23,101 bases of DNA from a virus (Duplodnaviria; Heunggongvirae; Uroviricota; Caudoviricetes): IMG/VR virus record IMGVR_UViG_2698536506_000012; one strand, written 5' to 3'. The position numbers and the translations under genes were made by a program. Positions 1 to 21,990 of the stretch are shown one piece after another (position 1 is the stretch's first letter; each line of letters opens with the position of its first letter). A model generated the notes under the pieces. It searched no databases and was not told the origin of the DNA. It saw nothing but the letters and a program-made list of their open reading frames with translations.

Positions 1-483
1 ATGACGAAGAAAAAAGCACATAAACCTGGTTCAGCGACCATCGCGCTTAACAAGCGCGCCCGTCACGAATACTTTATCGAAGAAGAGTTCGAAGCGGGAC
101 TTGCCCTGCAAGGCTGGGAAGTTAAATCCCTGCGCGCAGGAAAAGCCAATATCAGCGACAGCTACGTCCTTCTGCGTGACGGAGAGGCATTTCTGTTTGG
201 CGCTAACATCACGCCAATGGCCGTGGCCTCCACGCATGTGGTGTGCGATCCTACCCGTACCCGCAAGTTACTTCTCAACCAGCGCGAACTGGACTCATTG
301 TACGGTCGCGTCAATCGAGAAGGCTATACCGTAGTGGCGCTCTCCCTGTACTGGAAAAATGCCTGGTGCAAAGTGAAAATCGGCGTCGCCAAAGGTAAGA
401 AACAGCACGATAAACGTTCAGATATCAAAGAGCGCGAATGGCAGGTGGATAAAGCACGTATCATGAAAAACGCCCACCGTTAA
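1..483 (+). CDS. smpB: SsrA-binding protein SmpB, complete (160 aa)
   Basis: ATG at 1-3 and stop at 481-483. The translation ([25 protein letters not shown]...[10 protein letters not shown]) matches enterobacterial SmpB as I recall it, and the gene sits immediately upstream of ssrA as in E. coli. Confidence 0.96.
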
Positions 484-697: not shown

Positions 698-1060
698 GGG
701 GCTGATTCTGGATTCGACGGGATTTGCGAAACCCAAGGTGCATGCCGAGGGGCGGTTGGCCTCGTAAAAAGCCGCAAAAAATAGTCGCAAACGACGAAAA
801 CTACGCTTTAGCAGCTTAATAACCTGCTTAGAGCCCTCTCTCCCTAGCCTCCGCTCTTAGGACGGGGATCAAGAGAGGTCAAACCCAAAAGAGATCGCGT
901 GGAAGCCCTGCCTGGGGTTGAAGCGTTAAAACTTAATCAGGCTAGTTTGTTAGTGGCGTGTCCGTCCGCAGCTGGCAAGCGAATGTAAAGACTGACTAAG
1001 CATGTAGTACCGAGGATGTAGGAATTTCGGACGCGGGTTCAACTCCCGCCAGCTCCACCA
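698..1060 (+). ncRNA. ssrA: tmRNA (SsrA, 10Sa RNA), mature 363 nt
   Basis: Starts GGGGCTGATTCTGGATTCGACGGG and ends GGTTCAACTCCCGCCAGCTCCACCA, giving the tRNA-like acceptor/T-arm with encoded CCA. It contains the internal tag reading frame. Confidence 0.95.
787..819 (+). other. tmRNA tag-peptide reading frame (ANDENYALAA, stop)
   Basis: GCA AAC GAC GAA AAC TAC GCT TTA GCA GCT TAA read directly from the sequence; this is the canonical E. coli degradation tag. Confidence 0.9.
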
Positions 1061-1259: not shown

Positions 1260-1823
1260 TTACGTAACGTCAAACGCTCGAACTGAAGCCAAATCCTCCA
1301 GATTATTCAGTTCTTCCTTCATCTCTCGCTGACGGAAATAAATTTCATCATTGCGATCAACCTGCGCATGAAGCATTGCCGTAAGTAGTTCATCCAGTTG
1401 TTGCATTGACAACTTTACCTGCTGATTAACAGCATCACCCCACGTCATGACGTCCCGTGCTGTGTCGGATTTCGATGCCATCACCACCGGATAAAGACGG
1501 GCCATCGAATCCGGTCCCCCATTCCAGCTATGGCCGTTCCATTCAAAAATGAATGGCTGCGCTTCCTGTTCTGTACGCCATGCTTCAATTTCCCGGCGTT
1601 TGGCTGCTTTTGCTGCTTCCAGCATCTCTGACGTGACGGTGAACGGCGTTATTTCTCCCCATCTCCCGCTTTGCAGCTCCTGCCAGACTCGCTGCCCTGT
1701 CTCTGCTGTATCCGTGGCAGTTGCCGTATACGGAACCGGTTCATCCATGCCATCAAACAACACCCCACAGTCAATCGCGCCATTTTCAAGATAACGCGCA
1801 TTTTCGATGCGTTTTATTTCCAT
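1260..1823 (-). CDS. Tail fibre assembly/chaperone protein, DUF4376-like (about 187 aa)
   Basis: ATG at 1823 with AGGTG 5 nt upstream; stop TAA at 1262-1260. The C-terminal half (EMLEAAKAAKRREIEAWRTEQE...WGDAVNQQVKLSMQQLDELLTAMLHAQ) follows the pattern I recall for DUF4376 fibre chaperones, and it lies immediately 3' of a fibre gene. The ORF-track start at 1856 overlaps the upstream gene and is less likely. Confidence 0.7.
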   Translation of the reverse strand: MEIKRIENARYLENGAIDCGVLFDGMDEPVPYTATATDTAETGQRVWQELQSGRWGEITPFTVTSEMLEAAKAAKRREIEAWRTEQEAQPFIFEWNGHSWNGGPDSMARLYPVVMASKSDTARDVMTWGDAVNQQVKLSMQQLDELLTAMLHAQVDRNDEIYFRQREMKEELNNLEDLASVRAFDVT

Positions 1824-1830
1824 AAAACAC

Positions 1831-3255
1831 CTACGCAATACGTATGAACAAACCAATCATGACACTGGCTGACCCGGCAGACCCGAGCCCATCGCCTGAC
1901 AGTGCCCGATACGACCCCGGCATACCACCACCAGAACCCCGCACATATACGGAAACGCTGTCGTTATATCCAACCCCGCTACCGGTCGTGCCGTGACACA
2001 TAAATTCAACCGCGCTCAGGCGTGAACCCGGATAGCTGTAACCGCGTTTTATCCGGCGGTCGGTGTCTGCGTCTCCCTTACCGTTATAAGCCGCCAGTAC
2101 AAGGCTGCCTGCACCGTACCAGCCGTCCGTGGTACCGGGAGCAATACCGGACAGAAGATAGATAATGTCCTGTGAGGTAATCTTCAGATTTTCCCAGCCA
2201 GTCAGATAACCATTACCTGTTGTCCAGTAGCGGTTGTAATAAACATCGCCATTAATACCGTAGAAAATAATGGCCTTTGCTGTATATCGCGGCTCCGGTG
2301 GATTATTGCGTGCCTCAACCCACCGGATGCGGACCATCCCGTTAAACAACACACCTCCGGATATGATTTTACTGTCACCCTCAACAAAATATTCACCCGG
2401 CGTCGCATTCCTTACCCAGGACAGAAAATCATCCTCTGTGTTAAAACGGATACGCTCTGCGGGCAAAAAAATATGCCCAAAACCAAATGCACCGGGTGTC
2501 GCCAGACGGCCTTCAGTCCGGTCACGAATGTCGCTCTGTGGCGTCATTGTGGCTGCGCTTTTCAGTCCAAGATTATCACGGGATTCCTGCTGAGCCTCTT
2601 CACCTTCATCAGCCAGCTCTGATAAACGATTCGCCGTTTTCAGTGTCGCAGATAACGCAGTATCAATATCCTCCCTGACATGCTCTGCATCAGATGCGGC
2701 CTTTTTCGCGGCTTCAGCATCCTGCCTGACCTCTGCGGCGGTATCCTCAACCTGTGAGACCAGAGTTTCGGCCTGTTGTTTACCCTCCGCAACCGCGTCG
2801 GCGTTCTGCTGAACACCTTCCACCAGTTTTTTTACATCTTCTTTTGCCCGGGCGGCAGCGTCTGCATGTTGCCCTGCCTGTCGTTCGCTTTCTGTTGCAG
2901 TTTCCGCGCTCTGCTGCGCCTGCGCCACCATTTCCTCAAATCGTTTGACGACATCCGGCTTCAGGTCACCTTCATCGATGGCTGTCAGAAAATCATTCAG
3001 CGTGCCGGGCTTTGAATCGTGGTAAACCGAAATATCACCGACACAGTATTCCCTTTCAATACACGACCGAAGATAAACTTCATATTTTCCGGTCTGAGCT
3101 TCAAAAGCATATTCTCCTGCCGGACCTGTCACCACTGTAGCCACCGTTCTCATGACCACTGCGGATGTATTCTGTCGGGCTTTCAGAAGAATATGATGAC
3201 CGGACATAGGACGGCCAGCGCCATCAGCAAGAATCCCTGAGATGAGTGTGGACAT
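1831..3255 (-). CDS. Second side tail fibre protein (about 474 aa) with a Stf-like N-terminal anchor domain
   Basis: ATG at 3255; the ORF-track start at 3324 is a TTG. The N-terminus (MSTLISGILADGAGRPMSGHHILLKARQNTS...[12 protein letters not shown]...) aligns by eye with the Stf N-terminus in this window ([31 protein letters not shown]...[12 protein letters not shown]). It continues into a charged, probably coiled region and a distinct Gly/Tyr-rich C-terminal domain. Confidence 0.8.
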   Translation of the reverse strand: MSTLISGILADGAGRPMSGHHILLKARQNTSAVVMRTVATVVTGPAGEYAFEAQTGKYEVYLRSCIEREYCVGDISVYHDSKPGTLNDFLTAIDEGDLKPDVVKRFEEMVAQAQQSAETATESERQAGQHADAAARAKEDVKKLVEGVQQNADAVAEGKQQAETLVSQVEDTAAEVRQDAEAAKKAASDAEHVREDIDTALSATLKTANRLSELADEGEEAQQESRDNLGLKSAATMTPQSDIRDRTEGRLATPGAFGFGHIFLPAERIRFNTEDDFLSWVRNATPGEYFVEGDSKIISGGVLFNGMVRIRWVEARNNPPEPRYTAKAIIFYGINGDVYYNRYWTTGNGYLTGWENLKITSQDIIYLLSGIAPGTTDGWYGAGSLVLAAYNGKGDADTDRRIKRGYSYPGSRLSAVEFMCHGTTGSGVGYNDSVSVYVRGSGGGMPGSYRALSGDGLGSAGSASVMIGLFIRIA

Positions 3256-3295
3256 AAATTTTTCCCCAAAAAAGCCAGCTTTCGCCGGCAATGCT

Positions 3296-3877
3296 TTAAC
3301 TGACAGGTTGCTGCGGCCACTCAATTTCCGGCGCTAAAGATGTATCAACCCGGTTCAACAACACCCGATACTTCTTCCAGGCCGCCAGCAACGAGGTTTC
3401 TTCCTCCGTTGCAATTTCCAGATCTGCAGCATCCTGAAGCGGTGAAATATGCTCACTGGCTACCTGCATCAGGCTGTTTTTTGTTTCTTCCGCCTCCCGG
3501 ATCCGGAACAGTTTTTCTGCTTCCGTATCCTTCACCCAGGCTGTGCCGTTCCACTTCTGATATTCCCCTCCCGGCGATAACCAGGTAACATTTTCCGGTA
3601 ACGGACCAGGTTCAGAAATAAATAATGCATCCCCTGATGCCACGTCATAGACGGTTTTACCCCGATGGTCTTCAACGAGATGCCACGATGCCTCATCACT
3701 GTTGAAAACAGCCACGAAGCCAGCCGGAATATCTGGCGGTGCAATATCGGTACTGTTTGCTGGCAGACCTGTATGAGGTGGAATGTATGCATCACCTTCA
3801 CCAATAAATTCATTGGTTCCGGCCAGCAGATTATAAATTTTTATGGTCCGTGGTAGTTCACTCATTCTGAATGCCAT
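3296..3877 (-). CDS. tfa: Tail fibre assembly protein Tfa (193 aa)
   Basis: [54 protein letters not shown]... closely matches lambda Tfa as I recall it. ATG at 3877 overlaps the stf stop (TAATG). Confidence 0.93.
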
Positions 3878-6212: not shown

Positions 6213-6238
6213 AAAAAAGCCCACCGGTTCCGGCGGGC
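6213..6238 (-). terminator. Rho-independent terminator downstream of lom
   Basis: On the - strand: AGCCCGCCGG-AA-CCGGTGGGCT (one mismatch) followed by TTTTTT. It sits between the lom stop (6266) and the stf start (6201). Confidence 0.6.
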
Positions 6239-6265
6239 TGTCATAACACTGTGTTACCTGGCTAA

Positions 6266-6911: not shown

Positions 6912-6931
6912 AAAACGCCCGTTCCCGGACG
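6912..6931 (-). terminator. Weak hairpin plus U-tract (possible attenuator) between J and lom
   Basis: On the - strand: CGTCCG-GGAA-CGGGCG (6-bp stem with one G-U pair) followed by TTTTATTAT. Confidence 0.35.
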
Positions 6932-10346: not shown

Positions 10347-10406
10347 TTATCTGGCTCCATTAACAACAAAACCGCCCGGAGGCGGTTTCACATAAAACGT
10401 TTTACA

Positions 10407-12737: not shown

Positions 12738-15700
12738 CACCGGTATACTCCGCTTAACTGCCCGCCATCACGGGACTGTTGTTGCATAAAATCTTCTGCA
12801 GCCCTTTTCCCCAGGTTGTAAACCGCCTGCATGACTTCCGGCCCAATCTGTCCGTTCTGGCCATCATTATTGATCTCGATGTTGTACTGCGGCGCAAACA
12901 TCACCATCCCCGAACCACAGGTCGCTGCCACAACACCCAGCTTACCGTCAGCCCCCCTGCGCAAGGGCAGGATAGCCTCAGGCCCCGCTTCACCCATCAC
13001 CCCCGCGCCTTTTGCAAAAGCAAAAAACGTTGGACGGTTAACCACCGTGCCACTGTAGCGACTCAAATCAGCAGACTGATAAACACCACCTTCTGCATTG
13101 GTTTTCACATCACCGAAATCAAACCCCATCACACTGCCAATCCCTTTGACAGCCTTCATCATGGTTGCCTGCGCCAGAATTTTTGCCATATCTGACAGCA
13201 CAGATGAGGTGAAAGATTTGAAATTGAGTTTGCCGGTGGTAACAAAAGTTGCCAGACCATTTCCCATACTACTGAAAGCAGACATAAACATCTGTTCTGC
13301 AGTCCCGGCAGCATTATCCGCGTCGGCAGTAAAATTCATGAACGCGCGTTTTGTACCGTTTTTCCACTCCCCCTGCGCAGCATCCATCTGTTGCCAGTAG
13401 CGGCGATTCTCATTCAGTTTCCGGTTCAGACTGTCTGTCAGCGTCTGTTCAGCCTTCCGGTATGCGTCAGAACCATACGAGCCTTTCTGCTTACTGTCCC
13501 GTTCAAGTTGCTCCAGCTGTTGCTGGTACTGCTGTCGTAGACGCAACTGCGACTGGTACCGCTGCCGTTGCTTATCGCCCATTCCCGCCATGGCAACGTC
13601 CAGATCGTGTTGCTGACGCTGTGCGCGCTCTTCCTCAGCCAGTTGACTGGTCAGCTGAATGGTCTTTTTCTTCAGGTCATTGAGGGCAGTCTGCTTCTGC
13701 AGCTCCTGCTGTTTTGCATCCAGCAGCGTCAGTGCCTGAATCAGCTCATCCTTGTGAGCCAGAACACTTTTTTCATCTGCTGTCAGTTTTTTACCGGCTA
13801 AATCGCTGATACGCTGCTGAAGGGCCAGAAGCTGTTTATGCGCTTCTGTCATCCTTTCAGTAGCCATGCCCGCTGACTGTCTGGCGGCGGCAATCTGTCC
13901 CTCCACCTGCGCCTGTTGCTGGCTGTACTGCAGTAATAACCGGGTGGCCTCATCATTACGGGTGGCAGGCGTTTTTTTCTTAATGGCTTTTTCGTAACGT
14001 TCATTTTCACGCTGTATCGCTGCGTCCCTGACCGCCTGATCGGCGTACTGCATGGCATTAATACGCGCAATTTCACGCTGATGTCGTGCTGCTTCCGTTT
14101 CGTTCATCCGGTTCAGCGCGGCATTTTCAGCATTCCGGCGTTTCTGCTGCTCCTGATAATTTCGCTCAGCCTGCTCTTTTGCATCCTGCAAATCCTGCTG
14201 GCGTTTTCGCTCTTGCAGCGCATCCAGTTGTTGCTGATCGTATTCCCCCGTGGTGGACGCCTTAGTCCACGGAAATTTCTTCGCCCGCTGAATTTTTTCC
14301 TGCAGCGACGCAATCTGCGCATCAAGGGAATCTTCCCGACCAATGTTCATGGCCGCATCCCAGAACTGCTTCCACCAGTCAGACAAGGTTTGCAGCGTAC
14401 TGCCCAGCGCATTGAGGTTATTATCAATATCCGACGTACGTTTACCGGTTTCCTCTGCCAGTGCAGACATGGCTATCCGGGCGGCGTCACTGGTGCGCCC
14501 CTGCTCTCCGAGCACACGGATCTGTTCAAGCTGGGTGGCTGTCAGAAAATGCAGTTCATCATCCAGCGCCTTCGCAGCACTGACCGGATCATCCTTCAGC
14601 CGTTTAAACTGACTGATGGTGTCACTGACAGACTGCCCTACCGAGCGTTCCATCTGTGCGGCAGCTTTCGCCACCATACCAATATCGTTACCGTGAAATG
14701 CACCGCTCCCCACTACCTGCGCCAGTGACCCCGCCATGGCATGTTGCGTGATGCCATTACCGGAAAGATTTTTACTGAGCGCCCACAACTGCCCGGCTGT
14801 CACACCGGCATAGTGTCCGGTGAGCTCAAGCTGCCGGTTAAAGGCTTCGCCTTCTTCCTGCCCCTCCATCCAGGCTTTACCCAGACCAATAACCGCAGCA
14901 GTGATCCCTCCGATAACTCCCCCCACCGCCAGGCCTTTCGGCGTCATTAATTTATCAATCCAGCCGGCACGGTTAGCCAGGGTGATCCCGGAGCCACGAA
15001 GCGCACCGAAATTACCACGCGCCAGTTCACCAATCATGACCCCCAGCTCCCGACGGGCTGCCGCACTTTTCAGTCCCAGCGAATGTGTGGTGTTTCCGGC
15101 TTTCTCCATTTTACGGATGTACACCTCCGCGGCACTGCTGCACCCAAGTTGTGCCGCCTTTGCCCGAAGCAGTTCCGTCGTGGTCATTTTCTGGCGACTT
15201 GTCTGTTCTTTCAGCTGACGAATAAATGCGGTTTTCTGGCGGGTGGCCGTTTCCTCTGCCTGTGTCAGAACGCGGGTTTTCGCTGTCACCTCAGAAATCA
15301 GGGCCAGATAATCCTGCTGAGCAATCCCGCCACTGTTTCTGGCCTGTCGGATCTGCTGCTGAATACGCTGTAACTCCTGCAGCCCCGCACTGGCCTGTTT
15401 TACGCTGTCGATCTGACGATAAAATGCGGCAGCCATCTTATCCTGCGCCGCAGCCAGCGCAGCCGCCTGAACCTGCTCCTCCCGCATCTGACGACTCAGG
15501 GCCTCCATCCGCAGGCGCGCCCTTTCCACATCTTCCGCCAGCGAAACATGCCCCTGCGCATGCTTCACCACGGCCTGAGTCTGTATCACCGTCGCGCTGG
15601 CAGCCTGTTTCTGACTTTCCTCAAACCGTTTCATACGGGCTTCGGCCCGCTCCGCCTCCCTTGCTGTACCATTCAGCAGATTTTTTACACGCGGAAGCTG

Positions 15701-15760
15701 CTCTTTAAAATCGGCGGTATCAATGCTTAAATCAATGACAAGGTCAGCAATCTGGTCCAA
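12737..15760 (-). CDS. H: Tail tape measure protein H (1007 aa)
   Basis: The N-terminus (M)DQIADLVIDLSIDTADFKEQ aligns with the lambda H N-terminus, and the C-terminus ...NNDGQNGQIGPEVMQAVYNLGKRAAEDFMQQQSRDGGQLSGVYR aligns with the lambda H C-terminus. The only in-frame start near the conserved N-terminus is TTG at 15760, with GGAGG about 8 nt upstream. Confidence 0.9.
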   Translation of the reverse strand: MDQIADLVIDLSIDTADFKEQLPRVKNLLNGTAREAERAEARMKRFEESQKQAASATVIQTQAVVKHAQGHVSLAEDVERARLRMEALSRQMREEQVQAAALAAAQDKMAAAFYRQIDSVKQASAGLQELQRIQQQIRQARNSGGIAQQDYLALISEVTAKTRVLTQAEETATRQKTAFIRQLKEQTSRQKMTTTELLRAKAAQLGCSSAAEVYIRKMEKAGNTTHSLGLKSAAARRELGVMIGELARGNFGALRGSGITLANRAGWIDKLMTPKGLAVGGVIGGITAAVIGLGKAWMEGQEEGEAFNRQLELTGHYAGVTAGQLWALSKNLSGNGITQHAMAGSLAQVVGSGAFHGNDIGMVAKAAAQMERSVGQSVSDTISQFKRLKDDPVSAAKALDDELHFLTATQLEQIRVLGEQGRTSDAARIAMSALAEETGKRTSDIDNNLNALGSTLQTLSDWWKQFWDAAMNIGREDSLDAQIASLQEKIQRAKKFPWTKASTTGEYDQQQLDALQERKRQQDLQDAKEQAERNYQEQQKRRNAENAALNRMNETEAARHQREIARINAMQYADQAVRDAAIQRENERYEKAIKKKTPATRNDEATRLLLQYSQQQAQVEGQIAAARQSAGMATERMTEAHKQLLALQQRISDLAGKKLTADEKSVLAHKDELIQALTLLDAKQQELQKQTALNDLKKKTIQLTSQLAEEERAQRQQHDLDVAMAGMGDKQRQRYQSQLRLRQQYQQQLEQLERDSKQKGSYGSDAYRKAEQTLTDSLNRKLNENRRYWQQMDAAQGEWKNGTKRAFMNFTADADNAAGTAEQMFMSAFSSMGNGLATFVTTGKLNFKSFTSSVLSDMAKILAQATMMKAVKGIGSVMGFDFGDVKTNAEGGVYQSADLSRYSGTVVNRPTFFAFAKGAGVMGEAGPEAILPLRRGADGKLGVVAATCGSGMVMFAPQYNIEINNDGQNGQIGPEVMQAVYNLGKRAAEDFMQQQSRDGGQLSGVYR

Positions 15761-16456
15761 ATCTCATTCCTCCCGATATACCTTCCCCCAGATGCATCAG
15801 CTCTTCATCCGTGCGTTCAGGGATCACCCTGTCATCCGTAACCAGACTGAAATCATCCGCCGGAATACGTTCACCGGACACCATCTGAACCATCAGCGAC
15901 TTCAGTGTGGAAATCTGTGCATCCAGCCAGATATCCCCGAAACTCTGCTTCCTGAAGAAATCCCCCCATTCGCCCAGTTCTGACGCTGACATTTCTGATA
16001 ACATCCGCCGCCAGTCTGCCCGCCGGAACTCACGGGCAAGCTGCATCACAAACTGCATCTCCCGCGTCAGGACTTTTCCGGTGTCAGAGGAACCTGTTCA
16101 CCGTTCTGAACATCACCGGTGGAGACCGGCATACCACTCAGGGATAAAACCAGACTGCCCCCGTCGCCAAGCGCGTCATAAGACCAGGTGTTTTTTACAT
16201 CCTCATTCAGCGCATCCACATCCTGTGACGGGTCCGTATTCCACATTGACCGGGAAACCAGCCAGGCGTTGATATCCATCCCCATACGCAGAAATTCAAT
16301 CTGACGTTCAGCCACCGGCATGGCATCATCCAGGGCGTCAAACTCAGCCGTCCGTTTCTGGACAAACGACAGATATTCCACCCGCTGCAGCCCGGACAGT
16401 TCTGTCATAACCACAGACTGATCACCGTAATTAAATGTGTCCTGTTTCAGAAACAT
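15744..16456 (-). CDS. Tail assembly chaperone G-T (fusion made by a programmed -1 frameshift near the end of G)
   Basis: A 104-codon ORF (15744-16058) lies in the -1 frame relative to G and overlaps its 3' end. That frame is open back to a stop at 16100-16098, and the arrangement sits between V and H as in lambda G/GT. Confidence 0.7.
16067..16456 (-). CDS. G: Tail assembly chaperone G (about 129 aa)
   Basis: ATG at 16456 (MFLKQDTFNYGD..., like lambda G MFLK...) with a GGAGAAGG ribosome-binding site; stop TGA at 16069-16067. The ORF-track start at 16477 is a TTG. Confidence 0.85.
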   Translation of the reverse strand: MFLKQDTFNYGDQSVVMTELSGLQRVEYLSFVQKRTAEFDALDDAMPVAERQIEFLRMGMDINAWLVSRSMWNTDPSQDVDALNEDVKNTWSYDALGDGGSLVLSLSGMPVSTGDVQNGEQVPLTPEKS

Positions 16457-16473
16457 AACCTTCTCCGCAAACA

Positions 16474-16498
16474 ACAAAAAAACCCCGGCATACCGGGG
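16474..16498 (-). terminator. Stem-loop plus U-tract immediately downstream of V
   Basis: On the - strand: ACCCCGG-TATG-CCGGGGT followed by TTTTTTTGTTGTTT, lying between the V stop (16517) and the G ribosome-binding site. Confidence 0.6.
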
Positions 16499-16516
16499 TA
16501 CAAACAGACCGTCTGA

Positions 16517-17257
16517 TTAACCACCATTAACGGTAATACTGGCCACTGCGACCTGTGCGCCACCCGCTGTCATCCCGACAATCGAGGTGCTTCCCGCTTT
16601 CACACCTTTCACCGTGGCCACCATGCCACTCAGTGTAACCGTGGCGATCTCAGGAGAGGATGACGCCACACTCACCGTTTTATCAGATGCATCTTCCGGT
16701 ACTGTGCTGAATGTCAGCGTCGTCGTTGCCCCCACCCTGACACTGGCAGATGCCGGTGCCACCGTCAGACCGGTCACGCTAACAAGCCCGGTGCCTTCCT
16801 CTGCCAGATACGGACGTCCCACACCGCTGATTTTCACAGTGCGGGTCATCACCTCTTTAGAGGTAACAGTTTTCCCCAGCGAGCTCAGCCAGCCACGGAA
16901 AACATCAACAGTGCCGTTGGGATATTTGATACGAAACGCACAGACTTCACCAGAGTCGAACAACTGAACCAGTTTTTTCTGCCCGCTGTCACCCGGACGC
17001 CAGGCCAGCGTCGCCGAAGTATCACCGACGGATTTTTGCCCCTGGGTTGTCGTTTTCCAGTCAGCATTTTCATCATCGAGATAATCGTCATCTTCCGCAT
17101 CTGCAGTCATTTCGCCCGGCTGTAAATCCTTCACCATCGCAAGACGCAGCCAGTCAGTATCTGACAACGGAGCCGCAAAGGCGTCCCCTTTGCCGGTATA
17201 CATCCAGAACGTCGTCCCCGCGCCCTTCGTTTTTTCCAGTGGATTCGGTGTTGGCAT
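16517..17257 (-). CDS. V: Major tail protein V with a C-terminal Ig-like (Big_2-type) domain (246 aa)
   Basis: ATG at 17257 with AAGGAG 6 nt upstream. MPTPNPLEKTKGAGTTFWMY...NGTVDVFRGW matches lambda V. The ORF-track start at 17275 is a TTG. Confidence 0.92.
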   Translation of the reverse strand: MPTPNPLEKTKGAGTTFWMYTGKGDAFAAPLSDTDWLRLAMVKDLQPGEMTADAEDDDYLDDENADWKTTTQGQKSVGDTSATLAWRPGDSGQKKLVQLFDSGEVCAFRIKYPNGTVDVFRGWLSSLGKTVTSKEVMTRTVKISGVGRPYLAEEGTGLVSVTGLTVAPASASVRVGATTTLTFSTVPEDASDKTVSVASSSPEIATVTLSGMVATVKGVKAGSTSIVGMTAGGAQVAVASITVNGG

Positions 17258-17271
17258 TACCATCTCCTTGT

Positions 17272-17673
17272 TCAATTTGTATATGTGATCTGATACGTGA
17301 TTTCCGCCATCGCCCAGGTGGCCATCTCGTTATCACGCTGATAGTTAAATCCCTGCGGGATCATGGTATCGATAAGATCTGAAAGTGCCGGAATATCTGT
17401 CAGAGCCGGGTAAATAATGTCATCCATCCACGTATCCAGTTCTGTATCCGGTGCCTGCGCCCGGATAAAGACCGCGACATGCAGAACCGCCTGCCAGTCA
17501 GCCTCATCCACCATTTTTCCGGTGTACTGCGCATCGCTCAGCCATACCGCCACGGCGGGCAGTTCCTGCGCATCAATAAAAGCAGGAAGTCCATCGAACA
17601 GGACGGTATTCTCCCTGCACGTCGCTTTCAGGCACGACAATACGGCCTGACGAATTTGTGTGTGTCGGTTCAT
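17272..17673 (-). CDS. U: Tail terminator protein U (133 aa)
   Basis: ATG at 17673 overlaps the Z stop (ATGA). ...PAVAVWLSDAQYTG...DIPALSDLIDTM... matches lambda U. Confidence 0.92.
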   Translation of the reverse strand: MNRHTQIRQAVLSCLKATCRENTVLFDGLPAFIDAQELPAVAVWLSDAQYTGKMVDEADWQAVLHVAVFIRAQAPDTELDTWMDDIIYPALTDIPALSDLIDTMIPQGFNYQRDNEMATWAMAEITYQITYTN

Positions 17674-18248
17674 CGGGTCAGATATAACCTCAGTTGTTGT
17701 TTCAGGGCATACCCCAGCTGTTTCGGCATCTCGTTATCAATGACGCTTTTACGGGCATCCTCAAATGCCAGTGTCAGCGGACCGGACAGCGGAATTTTCA
17801 CCACATCAATGGGGTAACGATTTTTGCCGTCAATACGCCGCATCACATGCCAGCGACCGTTCGCCAGTTGCTGAATAAAGGCATTCCGGAAGAGATATTT
17901 TCCCACTTTCAGCACACTGCCACGGTAATGTAACCTGCCACCACGCCGGGTCATTCTGACCTGTGCAGCCCCCAGTTTTATGGCGGGCAGGTTGCCGCGA
18001 TTTACGCGAATACGGGCATACATTTTTCCGTCCGGGCTGGCTTTAAGTACCCTGACACGCTCACGCACCAGTTTCAGGGGGATCCCCTTCACCTGGTTAT
18101 CACCAGCCACAGTATTCTGCGCGACCTGCCGTGTGGCGACAGAGACAACCTTTGCCGCCACACGGTTCATCGCCCATGCGCTGGCCTGTGGCACCATACG
18201 GGTATCAAGGATGTCCAGATTACGGATGGCGTTTTCAAGACCTTTCAT
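17670..18248 (-). CDS. Z: Tail completion protein Z (about 192 aa)
   Basis: ATG at 18248 (MKGLENAIRNLDILDTRMVPQASAWAMNRVA..., like the lambda Z N-terminus). The ORF-track start at 18362 lies inside FII and is unlikely. Confidence 0.88.
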   Translation of the reverse strand: MKGLENAIRNLDILDTRMVPQASAWAMNRVAAKVVSVATRQVAQNTVAGDNQVKGIPLKLVRERVRVLKASPDGKMYARIRVNRGNLPAIKLGAAQVRMTRRGGRLHYRGSVLKVGKYLFRNAFIQQLANGRWHVMRRIDGKNRYPIDVVKIPLSGPLTLAFEDARKSVIDNEMPKQLGYALKQQLRLYLTR

Positions 18249-18609
18249 AATATCGCCCCGTACTGATATCACCCCGGGAACTGTCACACCGTTGCAGGCG
18301 GATATAACAGCATCCCCTGTCGTCCGGAGTAATGCGATCCACCCGAAAAAGATCCCCACCAACCTCCAGCGTATCCAGACGGCGCAGTCCCGTAATATCT
18401 GCTGTTTTCACAAACAAAGACGGTGAAGAATCTTCAAACCGTACTCCTCCGGCAACGAACGAAATTTTTTCAGGATCATCAAAAACACCCCTGAGTGTTT
18501 TTCCTTCAAGCTGACCGGACGTAATTACCGCCGTAATCCCCATATGACAAAGAATGACCTCGTCAGCCATGGCGACGGCGGCATCAAACGGATTATCGAA
18601 ATCTGCCAC
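18235..18609 (-). CDS. FII: Head-tail joining protein FII (124 aa)
   Basis: MADFDNPFDAAVAMADE...GVFDDPEKIS...SSPSLFV... matches lambda FII. The first codon is GTG at 18609, with a G-rich ribosome-binding site upstream. Confidence 0.88.
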   Translation of the reverse strand: MADFDNPFDAAVAMADEVILCHMGITAVITSGQLEGKTLRGVFDDPEKISFVAGGVRFEDSSPSLFVKTADITGLRRLDTLEVGGDLFRVDRITPDDRGCCYIRLQRCDSSRGDISTGRYYERS

Positions 18610-18622
18610 CTTTCCCCCACAT

Positions 18623-19003
18623 TCAACACATTTTCACGAGGCCACTTTCTGCCATGCTGGCTGCCACCACAGCAGATACACGAAACACTTCTCCCGGACG
18701 TACAAATGCCACGGGGTTATCCCGTGTGGCGTGGAGTGCATTGACATGTAACATCACCACAGCTTTGACCATGACCATATCCACAGAATTTCGGTTCTCA
18801 CTCTCCCCACGTTCGGATCGTGTTTCGTTTTTTTGTTGTGGTTCTTCATCATCCTTATACAGGCCGTCTGAACCATCACTTAATTCTTCTTCCCACTCCG
18901 CCAGACGTTGTTCAAGATCAGCTTTAGAGCCTGAAATATCGGCATCGCGCCCGAGTACTGCCGCCAGCTCCTGAAGACGCGCTGTTATTTCTTCTTTTGT
19001 CAT
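18623..19003 (-). CDS. FI: DNA packaging protein FI (about 126 aa)
   Basis: ATG at 19003 with an AGGAGAG ribosome-binding site. MTKEEITARLQEL... and the C-terminus ...LHVNALHATRDNPVAFVRPGEVFRVSAVVAASMAESGLVKM match lambda FI. Confidence 0.88.
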   Translation of the reverse strand: MTKEEITARLQELAAVLGRDADISGSKADLEQRLAEWEEELSDGSDGLYKDDEEPQQKNETRSERGESENRNSVDMVMVKAVVMLHVNALHATRDNPVAFVRPGEVFRVSAVVAASMAESGLVKMC

Positions 19004-19025
19004 CACATCTCTCCTGTGCGATAAA

Positions 19026-19048
19026 GAAAAAGGCGGGAATATCCCGCC
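19026..19048 (-). terminator. Stem-loop plus U-tract immediately downstream of E
   Basis: On the - strand: GGCGGGA-TAT-TCCCGCC followed by TTTTTCTTTAT, lying between the E stop (19054) and the FI ribosome-binding site. Confidence 0.6.
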
Positions 19049-19053
19049 TGACC

Positions 19054-20082
19054 TTATTTCACCTGAACCACCACAAATGCGTCCGGATCCGGCAACACCA
19101 TCAACGGCGCAGACTGCGTCATGGTATATTCGCACCCCGGGTCCCCCACCTCTAACCAGTGTTTCGGATAACGAATTGCAGAGGTGATCCCTTCACTCAG
19201 CGCCTGGTTATCCTGGATTGCGCCATAACAACGGACACCCTCCACCTGAGTGTTTCCAAGAATCAGTGTGCCTTCCGGCAGATAACGCTGCTCATCCCCG
19301 TTTTCATCAACATACGTTGTTTTCGCCACCATGATGGCCAGATCACCGTAATAACCTTTAAAAGAAACCACGGAACCCAGATCTTTCAGCGCGGTTTCCA
19401 GTTCAGATTTTGAGCCACGGCGGGTATCCAGTTTTTCACGAAACAGCTTAAAACCGTTCAGCATACGCCAGACAGTACCGTCCATAATCGCAATATTGAT
19501 GGTACCGGAAGCAAAATCGCAGTACGCATCCAGATCATGCGTCGGATCAAAGGTGTCAGCATTCTGTTTTGACCATTCGCGTCCCCCTGCCTGCGTTATG
19601 TTATTGGCGGCAGAACGTCCAAAATCCACTTCCACCGTCTCAAACTGTTCACCGCTCATGGTGTACTTACCCTGCAGAACAGCGCTGACCGCCTGCATTT
19701 CTTCCACCTGCACAATCGCTTGCTCTTCCTGTTTCAGGTTGTCAGTCAGAATACGCAGGCGACGGTAGGCCGGGTCATTAAGACGGGCCGGATCTTCCCC
19801 CGGAAGACGCTCCACCGCCTGCTGATAATCCAGCCGGTGTTTTGGTTTAACATAGCCGGGGCGTAACACGCGGGTTTCACCACCACGACTGCGCAGTACC
19901 TTACCTGACACAACCGGAGACACATATGCCGCAACCGGTGTTTTTCCGGTGATTTTATCCAGCATCACTTCCTGAGTATGGAAAGTGACCGTACGACGAA
20001 AAAACAGCTCCAGAAACAGCGCACGGAATTTCACTTTCTGCTCGGTGTAGCCGAGCAACTGACGCGTGGTAAATAACCCCAT
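19054..20082 (-). CDS. E: Major capsid protein E (about 342 aa)
   Basis: ATG at 20082 with an AAGGAAAG ribosome-binding site. ...GYVKPKH..., ...QVEEMQAVSAVLQGKYTM..., ...KLDTRRGSKSELETA..., ...TMTQSAPLMVLPDPDAFVVVQ match lambda E. Confidence 0.95.
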   Translation of the reverse strand: MGLFTTRQLLGYTEQKVKFRALFLELFFRRTVTFHTQEVMLDKITGKTPVAAYVSPVVSGKVLRSRGGETRVLRPGYVKPKHRLDYQQAVERLPGEDPARLNDPAYRRLRILTDNLKQEEQAIVQVEEMQAVSAVLQGKYTMSGEQFETVEVDFGRSAANNITQAGGREWSKQNADTFDPTHDLDAYCDFASGTINIAIMDGTVWRMLNGFKLFREKLDTRRGSKSELETALKDLGSVVSFKGYYGDLAIMVAKTTYVDENGDEQRYLPEGTLILGNTQVEGVRCYGAIQDNQALSEGITSAIRYPKHWLEVGDPGCEYTMTQSAPLMVLPDPDAFVVVQVK

Positions 20083-20097
20083 AATTGACTTTCCTTT

Positions 20098-20128
20098 AAA
20101 AACACAAACGGGCCGCATCACGACCCGT
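20098..20128 (-). terminator. Stem-loop plus U-rich tract at the 3' end of D
   Basis: On the - strand: ACGGGUCG-UGAUG-CGGCCCGU (8-bp stem with one G-U pair; the loop contains the putative D stop TGA) followed by TTGTGTTTTT, upstream of the E ribosome-binding site. Confidence 0.4.
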
Positions 20129-20390
20129 TTTTTNNNNNNNNNNNNNNNNNNNNNNNNNNNNNNNNNNNNNNNNNNNNNNNNNNNNNNNNNNNNNNNNNNN
20201 NNNNNNNNNNNNNNNNNNNNNNNNNNNNNNNNNNNNNNNNNNNNNNNNNNNNNNNNNNNNNNNNNNNNNNNNNNNNNNNNNNNNNNNNNNNNNNAACACT
20301 GATACCACTGGTACCTGTTGCGGTATACACCGGATCGCTTCCGGCAAAAATGCGCCCGTCCGCGCGCTTTTCTGTGGTGGTTTTAATCAT
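20118..20390 (-). CDS. D: Head decoration protein D, interrupted by an assembly gap
   Basis: ATG at 20390 with an AGGAG ribosome-binding site. The N-terminus MIKTTTEKRADGRIFAGSDPVYTATGTSGISV resembles lambda D (...GNSDPAHTATAPGG...), and it sits between C and E. The frame and length across the N-run are unknown, so the stop at 20118 is tentative. Confidence 0.65.
   Translation of the reverse strand: MIKTTTEKRADGRIFAGSDPVYTATGTSGISVXXXXXXXXXXXXXXXXXXXXXXXXXXXXXXXXXXXXXXXXXXXXXXXXXXXXXXKNGS
20134..20294. other. Assembly gap (161 N)
   Basis: A run of N in the sequence, beginning directly after a T6 homopolymer. Confidence 0.99.
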
Positions 20391-20430
20391 TTTCTCAGTC
20401 TCCTGATTTATCTGAATCACGGATCCCCGC

Positions 20431-21990
20431 TTACGGCATACTCATCAGCAGTTCTTCTTCCCCGTTCCCGGCAGTTCCGCCACCGGAAACGGCACTGGCG
20501 GCATGCTGTGCCATGAAGCGCTCAAAAAGTGTTACCTGTGACGGTTGCGATACTGATGGCGCAGCTGCCAGCAGTGTTTTCGCCTGCTCCACTGTCATTC
20601 CCGGNNNNNNNNNNNNNNNNNNNNNNNNNNNNNNNNNNNNNNNNNNNNNNNNNNNNNNNNNNNNNNNNNNNNNNNNNNNNNNNNNNNNNNNNNNNNNNNN
20701 NNNNNNNNNNNNNNNNNNNNNNNNNNNNNNNNNNNNNNNNNNNNNNNNNNNNNNNNNNNNNNNNNNNNNNNNNNNCGGTGCCGCTGCCAGTAACGTTTTC
20801 GCCTGCTCCACCGTCATTCCCGGCTGTTCAGCCAGCGTCCGTGCCAGTTGTTCACGTCCTTTTGCTTCCGGAAGTGCCACAATCTGATCGCCTGTGCTGT
20901 CAGTACCGGCAACCGGTGCTGCCGCCAGTAATGTTTTTGCCTGCTCAACTGACATTCCCTGCTGACCTGCCAGCATCTGCGCCAGTTTTTCGCGTCCTTT
21001 CGCCTCCTGACAATTCAGGATCCCCATCACGCGCTGATTTTCCTGGGACACCGCTTCAGCAACGGTGAGATTTTTTGTTGTCATCGTATTCTCCTGTGTA
21101 ACAGAGTCGTTCAGAGCAGAAACCATTACATCAACGGCATCTGCAGCATTAATCAGTTGATCAGCCAGGCCTGTATCAATGCCTGCCTGACCGTCATAAA
21201 CGGCAGCCTCGGTATTCATCACCACCTCTGAACTCAGCCCCGTATAAAGTGCCACCTTGTCGACAAACATCCGGCGGGCCTCATCAATACGGCGCTGAAA
21301 ATCCGCACGCACACCTGTCGGCAACGCCTGAATACTGTTGCCGTCAACCTTGTGCTGCCCGGAATAAATCAGCGTGATATCCACGCCTTCCTGTGCCAGT
21401 TGTTTCTCGTAACTGGTGTGCGCCATCATCACACCAATCGAACCAATTTTTGCCGTCTGCGTGACCAGCCGACGCGTACAGGCCGCCGCCAGCAACATGG
21501 CGGCTGAACAGGCCATGTCATTACACAGCGCCCACACGGGCTTCTGTTCCCGCAGACGGTAAATCATGTCAGCACAGTCAAACGCCCCGGCAGCCTGACC
21601 GCCCGGGCTGTCGATATCCAGTAAAATACCGCGTACATCCGGGTCGTTCACCGCTGACTTAAGACGGGCAGTCAGACCGTCATAACCGGTCATACCGGAA
21701 TATGGCCGCAGGGTACCCATTTTATGTACCAGCGTGCCGCTCACCGGCAGAATGGCAATCCCATTTTTCACCTGGTAACTCTTTACCGGACGCGGACCAC
21801 CAGTCATATAATCGGTAACCGCCAGCTGCATACCATCGGCATCAAGCTGAACGGCCTGCTGCGGAACGGCAAGGCTGCCCGCCCCAATTTCCTTACCCAG
21901 TGCGCAAAAGAAAACCCGCGCATAGGCGGGTTCCAGTAAAAGCGGCTCATTAAATGCCATCGCGGCAATATGTGATAAATTACAGCGCAT
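20431..21990 (-). CDS. C: Head maturation protease / scaffold C (S49/ClpP-like; Nu3-like scaffold region in its C-terminal part), gap-interrupted
   Basis: ATG at 21990. The N-terminus ...HIAAMAFNEPLLLEPAYARVFFCAL... and ...PVWALCNDMACSAAMLLAAACTRRLVTQTAKIGSIGVMMAH...ITLIYSGQHKVDGN... match lambda C. ...RVMGILNCQEAKGRE... corresponds to the lambda ...RIMGILNCEEAHGRE... region. Confidence 0.9.
   Translation of the reverse strand: MRCNLSHIAAMAFNEPLLLEPAYARVFFCALGKEIGAGSLAVPQQAVQLDADGMQLAVTDYMTGGPRPVKSYQVKNGIAILPVSGTLVHKMGTLRPYSGMTGYDGLTARLKSAVNDPDVRGILLDIDSPGGQAAGAFDCADMIYRLREQKPVWALCNDMACSAAMLLAAACTRRLVTQTAKIGSIGVMMAHTSYEKQLAQEGVDITLIYSGQHKVDGNSIQALPTGVRADFQRRIDEARRMFVDKVALYTGLSSEVVMNTEAAVYDGQAGIDTGLADQLINAADAVDVMVSALNDSVTQENTMTTKNLTVAEAVSQENQRVMGILNCQEAKGREKLAQMLAGQQGMSVEQAKTLLAAAPVAGTDSTGDQIVALPEAKGREQLARTLAEQPGMTVEQAKTLLAAAPXXXXXXXXXXXXXXXXXXXXXXXXXXXXXXXXXXXXXXXXXXXXXXXXXXXXXXXXXPGMTVEQAKTLLAAAPSVSQPSQVTLFERFMAQHAASAVSGGGTAGNGEEELLMSMP
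20560..20965 (-). repeat. Tandem in-frame 138-bp (46-codon) repeats inside C; at least 3 copies spanning the gap
   Basis: The block GCCAGTAA(C/T)GTTTT(T)GCCTGCTC(C/A)AC(C/T)G(T/A)CATTCC recurs starting at 20786 and 20924 (exact 138-bp spacing), with a further copy ending at 20604. The protein motif (Q/P)GM(S/T)VEQAKTLLAAAP occurs three times. Confidence 0.75.
20605..20775. other. Assembly gap (171 N) inside the C repeat region
   Basis: A run of N flanked on both sides by copies of the 138-bp repeat. Confidence 0.99.

Follow-up and report, generated by a model that had tools for sequence, protein, structure and literature searches.

The window, by which we mean the whole stretch of 23,101 nucleotides that was analysed, contains the morphogenetic half of a lambda-like E. 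coli prophage whose genes are read on the minus strand. The 901-nt E-FI stretch that was searched occurs with 100% identity in E. coli C5. The genes annotated there are collinear with the window, the annotation running from portal, S49 protease, head decoration and major capsid genes through gpFI, head-tail joining and tail genes to J, lom and the tail fibres. The capsid reading frame shares 58.7% amino-acid identity with lambda E, and PGAP names the product of the identical sequence 'major capsid protein'. The window starts with smpB (1-483, plus strand) and the tmRNA gene ssrA (698-1060, plus strand; tag ANDENYALAA), from which it follows that the prophage is inserted beside ssrA; just past ssrA, at 1178-1215, comes a long inverted repeat that has T-runs on each strand. 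A second gene for a tail-fibre N-terminal domain and a DUF4376 gene (1260-3324, minus strand) come after the first stf/tfa pair, so that the prophage end has two alternative fibre cassettes. A search with GGGAAAG for the G-T frameshift site gave chance-level matches only.

Just past the stop codon of the capsid gene E, in the gap that separates it from the DNA-packaging chaperone gene FI, the coding strand holds a hairpin with six G-C pairs in its stem, directly followed by a U-rich tract (Table 1). In an intrinsic terminator a stem of some 5-14 bp, rich in G-C and closed by a loop of 3-8 nt, is directly followed on the transcribed strand by some 7-9 nt rich in U; the E-FI element has both parts. 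That the gap is structured is clear from folding computations: the isolated hairpin has a free energy of -13.8 kcal/mol, and its 71-nt context reaches -25 kcal/mol (z = -2.97), with none of 200 shuffles folding as well. The preliminary description of this DNA had recognised a 7-bp stem (GGCGGGA/TCCCGCC) in the 50-nt gap and called it intrinsic-terminator-like. The stem was correct, an extra A-U pair making it 8 bp, and pattern scans and folding recovered all sequence features of a terminator on the transcribed strand. The range then given, 19026-19048, is in the right place, but stops short of the outermost base pair and of half the T-tract. A minimal start-stop reading frame (AUG UGA) at 19001-19008 on the minus strand, in AUGUGAUG, overlaps the FI start codon; it is not kept in all variants of the family, two of which read GAUUUGAUG (L041) and AAUGCGAUG (L042).

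Table 1. Coordinates of the E-FI element, its neighbouring genes and the other terminator-like hairpins of the late block.
Feature	Position	Strand	Sequence or remark
Major capsid gene, lambda E family	19054..20082	-	ATG at 20082, TAA at 19056-19054
E-FI gap	19053..19004	-	50 nt
E-FI element, stem and U-tract	19021..19049	-	
E-FI hairpin	19049..19031	-	AGGCGGGA-UAU-UCCCGCCU; 8 bp; begins 4 nt past the capsid gene stop
E-FI hairpin, 5' arm	19049..19042	-	AGGCGGGA
E-FI hairpin, loop	19041..19039	-	UAU, 3 nt
E-FI hairpin, 3' arm	19038..19031	-	UCCCGCCU
E-FI U-tract	19030..19021	-	UUUUCUUUAU, directly 3' of the stem; 7 U in the first 8
FI Shine-Dalgarno sequence	19015..19009	-	AGGAGAG; just 3' of the E-FI U-tract
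FI, DNA-packaging chaperone gene	18623..19003	-	ATG at 19003..19001
D-E gap hairpin	20106..20130	-	11 pairs (2 G·U); tail GUGUUUUU at 20105..20098; strict match
V-G gap hairpin	16482..16499	-	ACCCCGG-UAUG-CCGGGGU followed by UUUUUUGUUG; strict match
I-J gap hairpin	10366..10391	-	AAACCGCC-UCCG-GGCGGUUU followed by UGUUGUU; weaker
Hairpin after J (J-lom gap)	6916..6931	-	CGUCCG-GGAA-CGGGCG followed by UUUUAUUAU; weaker
Terminator after lom	6218..6239	-	9-bp stem followed by UUUUUG; strict match
tfa-stf2 gap hairpin	gap 3256-3295	-	terminator-like; weaker

The E-FI element has counterparts in the same block. Junctions between the late genes fall into two classes, since most genes overlap or lie at most 14 nt apart and ten gaps measure 40-70 nt. 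A GC hairpin with a U-rich tail is present in seven of these ten gaps (D-E, E-FI, V-G, I-J, J-lom, lom-stf and tfa-stf2); the W-portal and protease-D gaps hold weak structures only, and the annotated FI-FII gap has a structure with a large loop, perhaps because the FII start is mis-called. Terminator-like elements had been proposed to mark the three virion proteins of highest abundance. D, E and V are each followed by one, but elements are also found after I, J, lom and tfa, and the similar hairpins after the low-copy I, J and tfa mean that the link with abundance is not exclusive. The element assigned in the same proposal to the end of D exists as well, but it sits in the 70-nt D-E gap, as the E. 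coli C5 sequence shows; it had been misplaced because 160 N at 20134-20293 mask the 3' part and the stop codon of the D-like head-decoration gene. Reading frames called across the N run (e.g. 20118..20420) are artefacts, D ending 70 nt before E in the identical C5 sequence. Lambda has a D-E hairpin that differs in sequence from that of the window, and its V-G gap, 15 nt long, has no hairpin.

The occurrence of these elements is neither random nor indifferent to strand. A strict scan of the window (perfect stem of at least 7 bp with at least 5 G-C pairs, loop of 3-8 nt, at least 6 T in 8) returned four sites on the minus strand and none on the plus strand. All four are intergenic, in the D-E, E-FI, V-G and lom-stf gaps. 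From 300 first-order Markov simulations the expectation is 0.10 ± 0.31 sites per strand, and none of the simulations reached four. A looser scan places the E-FI site third in the window. An antisense terminator on the plus strand at E-FI was considered and rejected, as its tail, GACCUUAUUU, is poor and it passes the loose scan alone and fails the strict one. A chance inverted repeat at E-FI is largely refuted by the 0.1 strict sites expected per strand. The region 15500-21000 had no match to an Rfam family at E <= 1.

For the comparison across relatives, E stop codons were located by tblastn anchoring at 91 and then at 201 loci, from which 71 distinct sequences past the stop were obtained. With the E-FI region as query, megablast gave no match in the phage collection, and a distant search mode gave homologues; a locus search with lambda E as the single protein brought almost only near-identical copies, and the diversity came from tblastn against annotated phages. 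A hairpin that folds at -12 kcal/mol or lower begins 0-37 nt past the stop in nearly all of the 71 distinct sequences, and at least ten unrelated stem sequences occur among the 201 loci. Over the 71 sequences the post-stop minimum free energy has a median z of -2.56, with 72% below -2. As a control, the 60 nt after each of the next two genes are unstructured (median z -0.73 and 0.08). The D-E gap is structured: for the 60 nt that precede E the median z is -3.08, and 75% of the distinct loci have structure there.

A comparison with the E-FI region of lambda had been suggested in the preliminary description, and its outcome was positive: lambda carries AUGGCCC-UUCG-GGGCCAU followed by UGUUUCUCU, a different hairpin at the same position. 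In phage 21 and PhiR5_1 the place is taken by CGGGGGC-GAAAU-GCCCCCG followed by UGUCUUUUUU, and hairpins unrelated to one another occupy the E-FI gaps of lambda, phage 21, phi80/mEp237, Gifsy-1 and prophages of Providencia, Trabulsiella and Serratia. The pattern extends well past the lambdoids, as 18 of 21 diverse annotated phages in the tblastn set have a strong hairpin in a 42-81-nt gap past the capsid gene, the hairpin energies past E-family capsid genes ranging from -12 to -25 kcal/mol. This set includes Gifsy-1, phi80, an Aeromonas phage, Chi, Enc34 and other Casjensviridae, the Casjensviridae being from Xylella, Xanthomonas, Klebsiella, Proteus, Pseudomonas, Ruegeria and Loktanella. The exceptions (L199, L200, L203) are Cylindrospermopsis phage Cr-LKS3 and Vibrio phage XM1, which have no gap past the capsid gene, and Nitratiruptor phage NrS-4, in which a 141-nt gap holds weak structure only. 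A stable stem-loop 3' of the highest-expressed gene that is kept in orthologous operons, the feature by which elements of the type known as selective RNA processing and stabilisation (SRPS) are recognised, is what these operons contain. Broad positional conservation with complete turnover of sequence, together with a split between versions with and without a U-tract, is the modest new point of this work.

Within the lineage of the window the sequence itself is conserved. The preliminary description had made its reading depend on conservation of the hairpin in closely related prophages, and among 12 distinct variants of the window hairpin family the core is indeed conserved: the only change in the six core G-C pairs is a C to U that leaves a U·G pair, and none of the nine scored columns of the U-tract varies. 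Core stem and U-tract together have one variable column in 21, against 18 of 23 in the other intergenic columns (Fisher p = 5e-7, a test that overstates independence because the variation of the flanks is in part recombinational block replacement). In two variants (L033 and L050) the A-U pair that closes the loop is broken, with A·A and A·C in its place. The phage-21 family has standard pairs in all 104 pair cells (100% paired), and one position runs from G-C (ten sequences) through G·U (one) to A-U (two), a compensatory series with its intermediate. Stem changes in the lambda-type variants are A-U to G·U only. Three one-sided changes in the lambda and window families keep their position paired, each with G·U in the sense RNA. 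As one-sided changes are nearly all G·U in the sense RNA, where the other strand would have A·C, they point to the late mRNA as the functional molecule, and judging from this pattern of variation the E-FI hairpin is under selection.

The distribution of the element in E. coli agrees with a fixed genomic position. A 53-nt cassette containing it was found in 47 of 5426 complete E. coli genomes, at one or two copies per genome, and it follows or adjoins the major capsid gene in all 25 rows among the matches listed. Between prophages that share only about 89% identity in their E/FI DNA, the cassette still has 96%. A dispersed REP/BIME-like repeat was therefore rejected, because a cassette that occurs once or twice per genome and, in the rows listed, always beside a gene annotated 'major capsid protein' is not of the REP type. 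E genes of the phage-21 and lambda types are homologous to the window DNA up to the E stop and no further (about 19054; query position 447), and homology to PhiR5_1-type phages runs about 170 bp into FI. The E-FI gap is thus a mosaic recombination junction, and the hairpin travels with E.

The wider operon gives the hairpin a plausible setting. In E. coli C5 the lysis genes (holins) and the head and tail genes through the tail fibres are all co-oriented, and a gene annotated as 'antiterminator Q family protein' lies 13.5 kb upstream of E-FI. The premise that the hairpin lies inside a single late transcript with Q-like antitermination, already made in the earlier description, is reasonable given this co-oriented block and upstream Q gene of the C5 annotation, and we regard the hairpin as a likely internal element of a Q-dependent late transcript. 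An internal promoter that would make E its own unit was considered and ruled out, since no promoter-like (sigma-70-like) site was found near E on the minus strand of the window. The phi80 record (L185, FN582354) predicts a promoter and transcription start at 440-474, just upstream of capsid gene 8; if so, the capsid gene of phi80 would be its own unit between promoter and terminator. In C5 (L204, 5874-9736) reverse-oriented genes for an OmpC-like porin, a DNA methyltransferase and tRNA-Gly lie between Q and the lysis genes, and look like moron-type cargo in the late-promoter region.

On the balance of these observations we lean towards an intrinsic terminator that doubles as a 3'-end-protecting stem-loop within the late operon, with Q-modified polymerase reading through it. 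The hairpin would form in the sense-strand late mRNA just past E. During lytic growth Q-modified polymerase would pass it, so that FI and the tail genes would still be made, and polymerase without the Q modification would halt in the U-tract. Read-through RNA could then be cut in the A/U-rich stretch downstream, and 3'-5' exonucleases would trim it back to the stem. Both routes would leave D-E segments with a protected 3' end, and the mRNA for the capsid shell would thus outlast or outnumber the downstream low-copy message. In this sense the hairpin probably boosts or insulates the capsid message; its dependence on Q, the formation of 3' ends and the effect on mRNA ratios are what we infer from the sequence and its context.

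Q renders RNA polymerase highly terminator-resistant (PMC12360218). Read-through in the lytic cycle is therefore expected, and the same property, which may leave hardly any partial termination during lytic growth, argues against the mechanism. Furthermore, with the hairpin only 4 nt past the stop codon, a ribosome that terminates at E would overlie part of the 5' arm and might keep the hairpin from folding during coupled transcription. In the literature we found no measurement of transcripts ending at the E-FI or D-E hairpins of lambda. The ratios of lambda late proteins reportedly arise mainly from translation initiation, as concluded by Sampson, Hendrix, Huang and Casjens in PNAS in 1988.

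Termination and stabilisation need not contribute equally in all members of the family. We ranked the sites by a score of the d'Aubenton-Carafa type, computed with modern energy parameters, so that the values serve for relative ranking only. The window sites come first (V-G +45, lom-stf +32, E-FI about +30), followed by lambda E-FI (-3.5), phi80 (-13), Chi (-22), the loci L065 (-29) and L090 (-32), Gifsy-1 (-33) and Enc34 (-40); from phi80 downwards the scored sites have little or no U-tract. As many relatives keep the hairpin without a U-tract, the core that is conserved across the family is the stem-loop, and for the family as a whole this favours the 3'-exonuclease barrier of the preliminary description over pure termination. 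A family-wide role of the stem-loop in 3'-end protection would fit what is known of operons for multi-subunit complexes. In the lineage of the window the U-tract is also conserved, so true termination of unmodified polymerase at the E-FI site is likely too. Because some versions have a U-tract and others do not, the choice between stabiliser and terminator is directly testable.

A broader reading, which we offer tentatively and hold to be possible rather than probable, is that the stem-loop after (in lambdoids also before) the E-family capsid gene is a general mRNA-stabilising module. It would be common to virulent Chi-like and temperate lambdoid phages and would set the ratio of shell to accessory proteins by selective RNA stabilisation, the U-tracts being an optional add-on in Q-antiterminated phages. 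In a rarer variant of this reading the hairpin-U-tail end would also yield an Hfq-bound, 3'-derived small RNA. If the stabilising module is real, the late-gene ratios of lambda would not come from translation initiation alone.

Among the alternatives, the one that survives best is that the element is a safety terminator or insulator only, which stops polymerases not modified by Q and keeps the late genes silent in the lysogen, with no effect on capsid mRNA in the lytic cycle. This is one of two roles suggested for P22-like intra-operon terminators (PMC8022706), and it agrees with the upstream Q gene, with the invariant U-tract of the window hairpin family and with the spread of seven terminator-like hairpins over the same co-oriented block, including those after the low-copy I, J, lom and tfa. 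We nevertheless consider it unlikely. Virulent Chi-like phages, which have no lysogenic state to protect, carry hairpins at the same place, and the many relatives without any U-tract could not terminate there. Moreover, in views of about 2 kb from 13 Chi-like and other distant non-lambdoid phages hardly any gap, if any, exceeds the one past the capsid gene, and the next junction is tight.

Less probable still, in our judgement, is a translational spacer or regulator, in which the stem-loop would uncouple translation of FI from the heavy ribosome traffic on E, or the pyrimidine tract would pair with the FI Shine-Dalgarno sequence, lowering FI. The U-tract abuts that sequence, weak outer pairs of the 71-nt minimum free energy structure reach it, and in both lambda and the window prophage a run of pyrimidines closely precedes a purine-rich Shine-Dalgarno sequence. 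The outer pairs are, however, short and weak, and the Shine-Dalgarno sequence is unpaired in the core structure. The stretch between U-tract and Shine-Dalgarno sequence is the most variable part of the gap, the distance from hairpin to Shine-Dalgarno sequence differs widely among relatives, and the GC-rich stem and invariant U-tract would be left unexplained.

We give very little credence to the element as a source of small RNA, in which hairpin and U-tail would be the Hfq-binding 3' module of a capsid-mRNA 3' fragment regulating host or phage genes. A hairpin with a U-tail is the usual Hfq-binding end, and lambda does make Hfq-bound small RNAs, including some from the late operon near pR' (bioRxiv 10.1101/2024.10.31.621285). 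That study, however, names PreS, LPR2 and 6S only, and among the supplementary-table rows listed for this RIL-seq preprint, searched for E, FI and D, there is no E-FI entry. The sequence upstream of the hairpin is coding, with no conserved seed evident, and the hairpin sequences turn over completely between relatives. Finally, the absence of any RNA function (a chance inverted repeat, a REP-like repeat or a DNA recombination joint at a mosaic boundary) would suit the exact end of phage-21-type E homology at the E stop, which makes the gap a mosaic junction; it is largely refuted, and hardly credible, given the chance expectation of 0.1 sites per strand, the lack of an Rfam match, a cassette confined to one or two copies in each of 47 of 5426 E. 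coli genomes and placed after the capsid gene in all 25 rows listed, and G·U-preserving and compensatory changes that point to pairing in the sense-strand RNA.

Late operons of phages have to deliver hundreds of capsid subunits for a few copies of accessory proteins from one transcript, and terminator-like hairpins inside them have been noticed for decades and annotated in some records. The kind of element described here is already known; as an example it is ordinary, with no new kind of mechanism. The window nevertheless offers a clean, strong example of a post-capsid hairpin, and the element is a candidate for a compact part with which synthetic operons could be given chosen expression ratios. 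Leaky terminators directly past a capsid gene are familiar from T7 (T-phi, after gene 10) and phiX174, where the capsid message exceeds the downstream late messages; T7 has its own polymerase and no antiterminator, and the efficiency of T-phi has been measured. A classic intercistronic stabiliser of E. coli is the REP element between malE and malF, and the window hairpin differs from REP repeats in not being dispersed.

Closest to our element are those of other phages with a Q-antiterminated late operon. In phi80 (FN582354) the E-FI stem-loop between gene 8 (gpE) and gene 9 (FI) is labelled 'rho-independent transcription terminator', and the record of mEp237 has a rho-independent terminator annotated between D and E. 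In phage L a terminator follows the procapsid module within the late operon, its roles being stated as not known (PMC8022706). The window element resembles those of phi80 and of phage L/P22 in its anatomy and in its place directly after capsid or procapsid genes. Its hairpin sequence is unrelated to those of phi80 and lambda, and its U-tract (7 U in 8; score about +30) is much better than that of phi80 (-13) or lambda (-3.5) in the relative ranking. In SPP1, too, stem-loop terminators mark the limits of late gene clusters (PMC6316719).

At the level of the family the likeness is rather to SRPS, as in the cip-cel cellulosome operon of Clostridium cellulolyticum, where 3' stem-loops of the most abundant operon genes set subunit ratios by selective stabilisation (PMC4423207). 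Both cases have a stable stem-loop 3' of the top-expressed gene of an operon for a multi-subunit assembly, kept in orthologues across species while its sequence drifts. SRPS stem-loops are mostly without U-tracts (PMC4423207), like the versions in Chi, Enc34, L065 and L090. The window hairpin differs from them in its conserved canonical U-tract, and could thus add termination to the protection of 3' ends.
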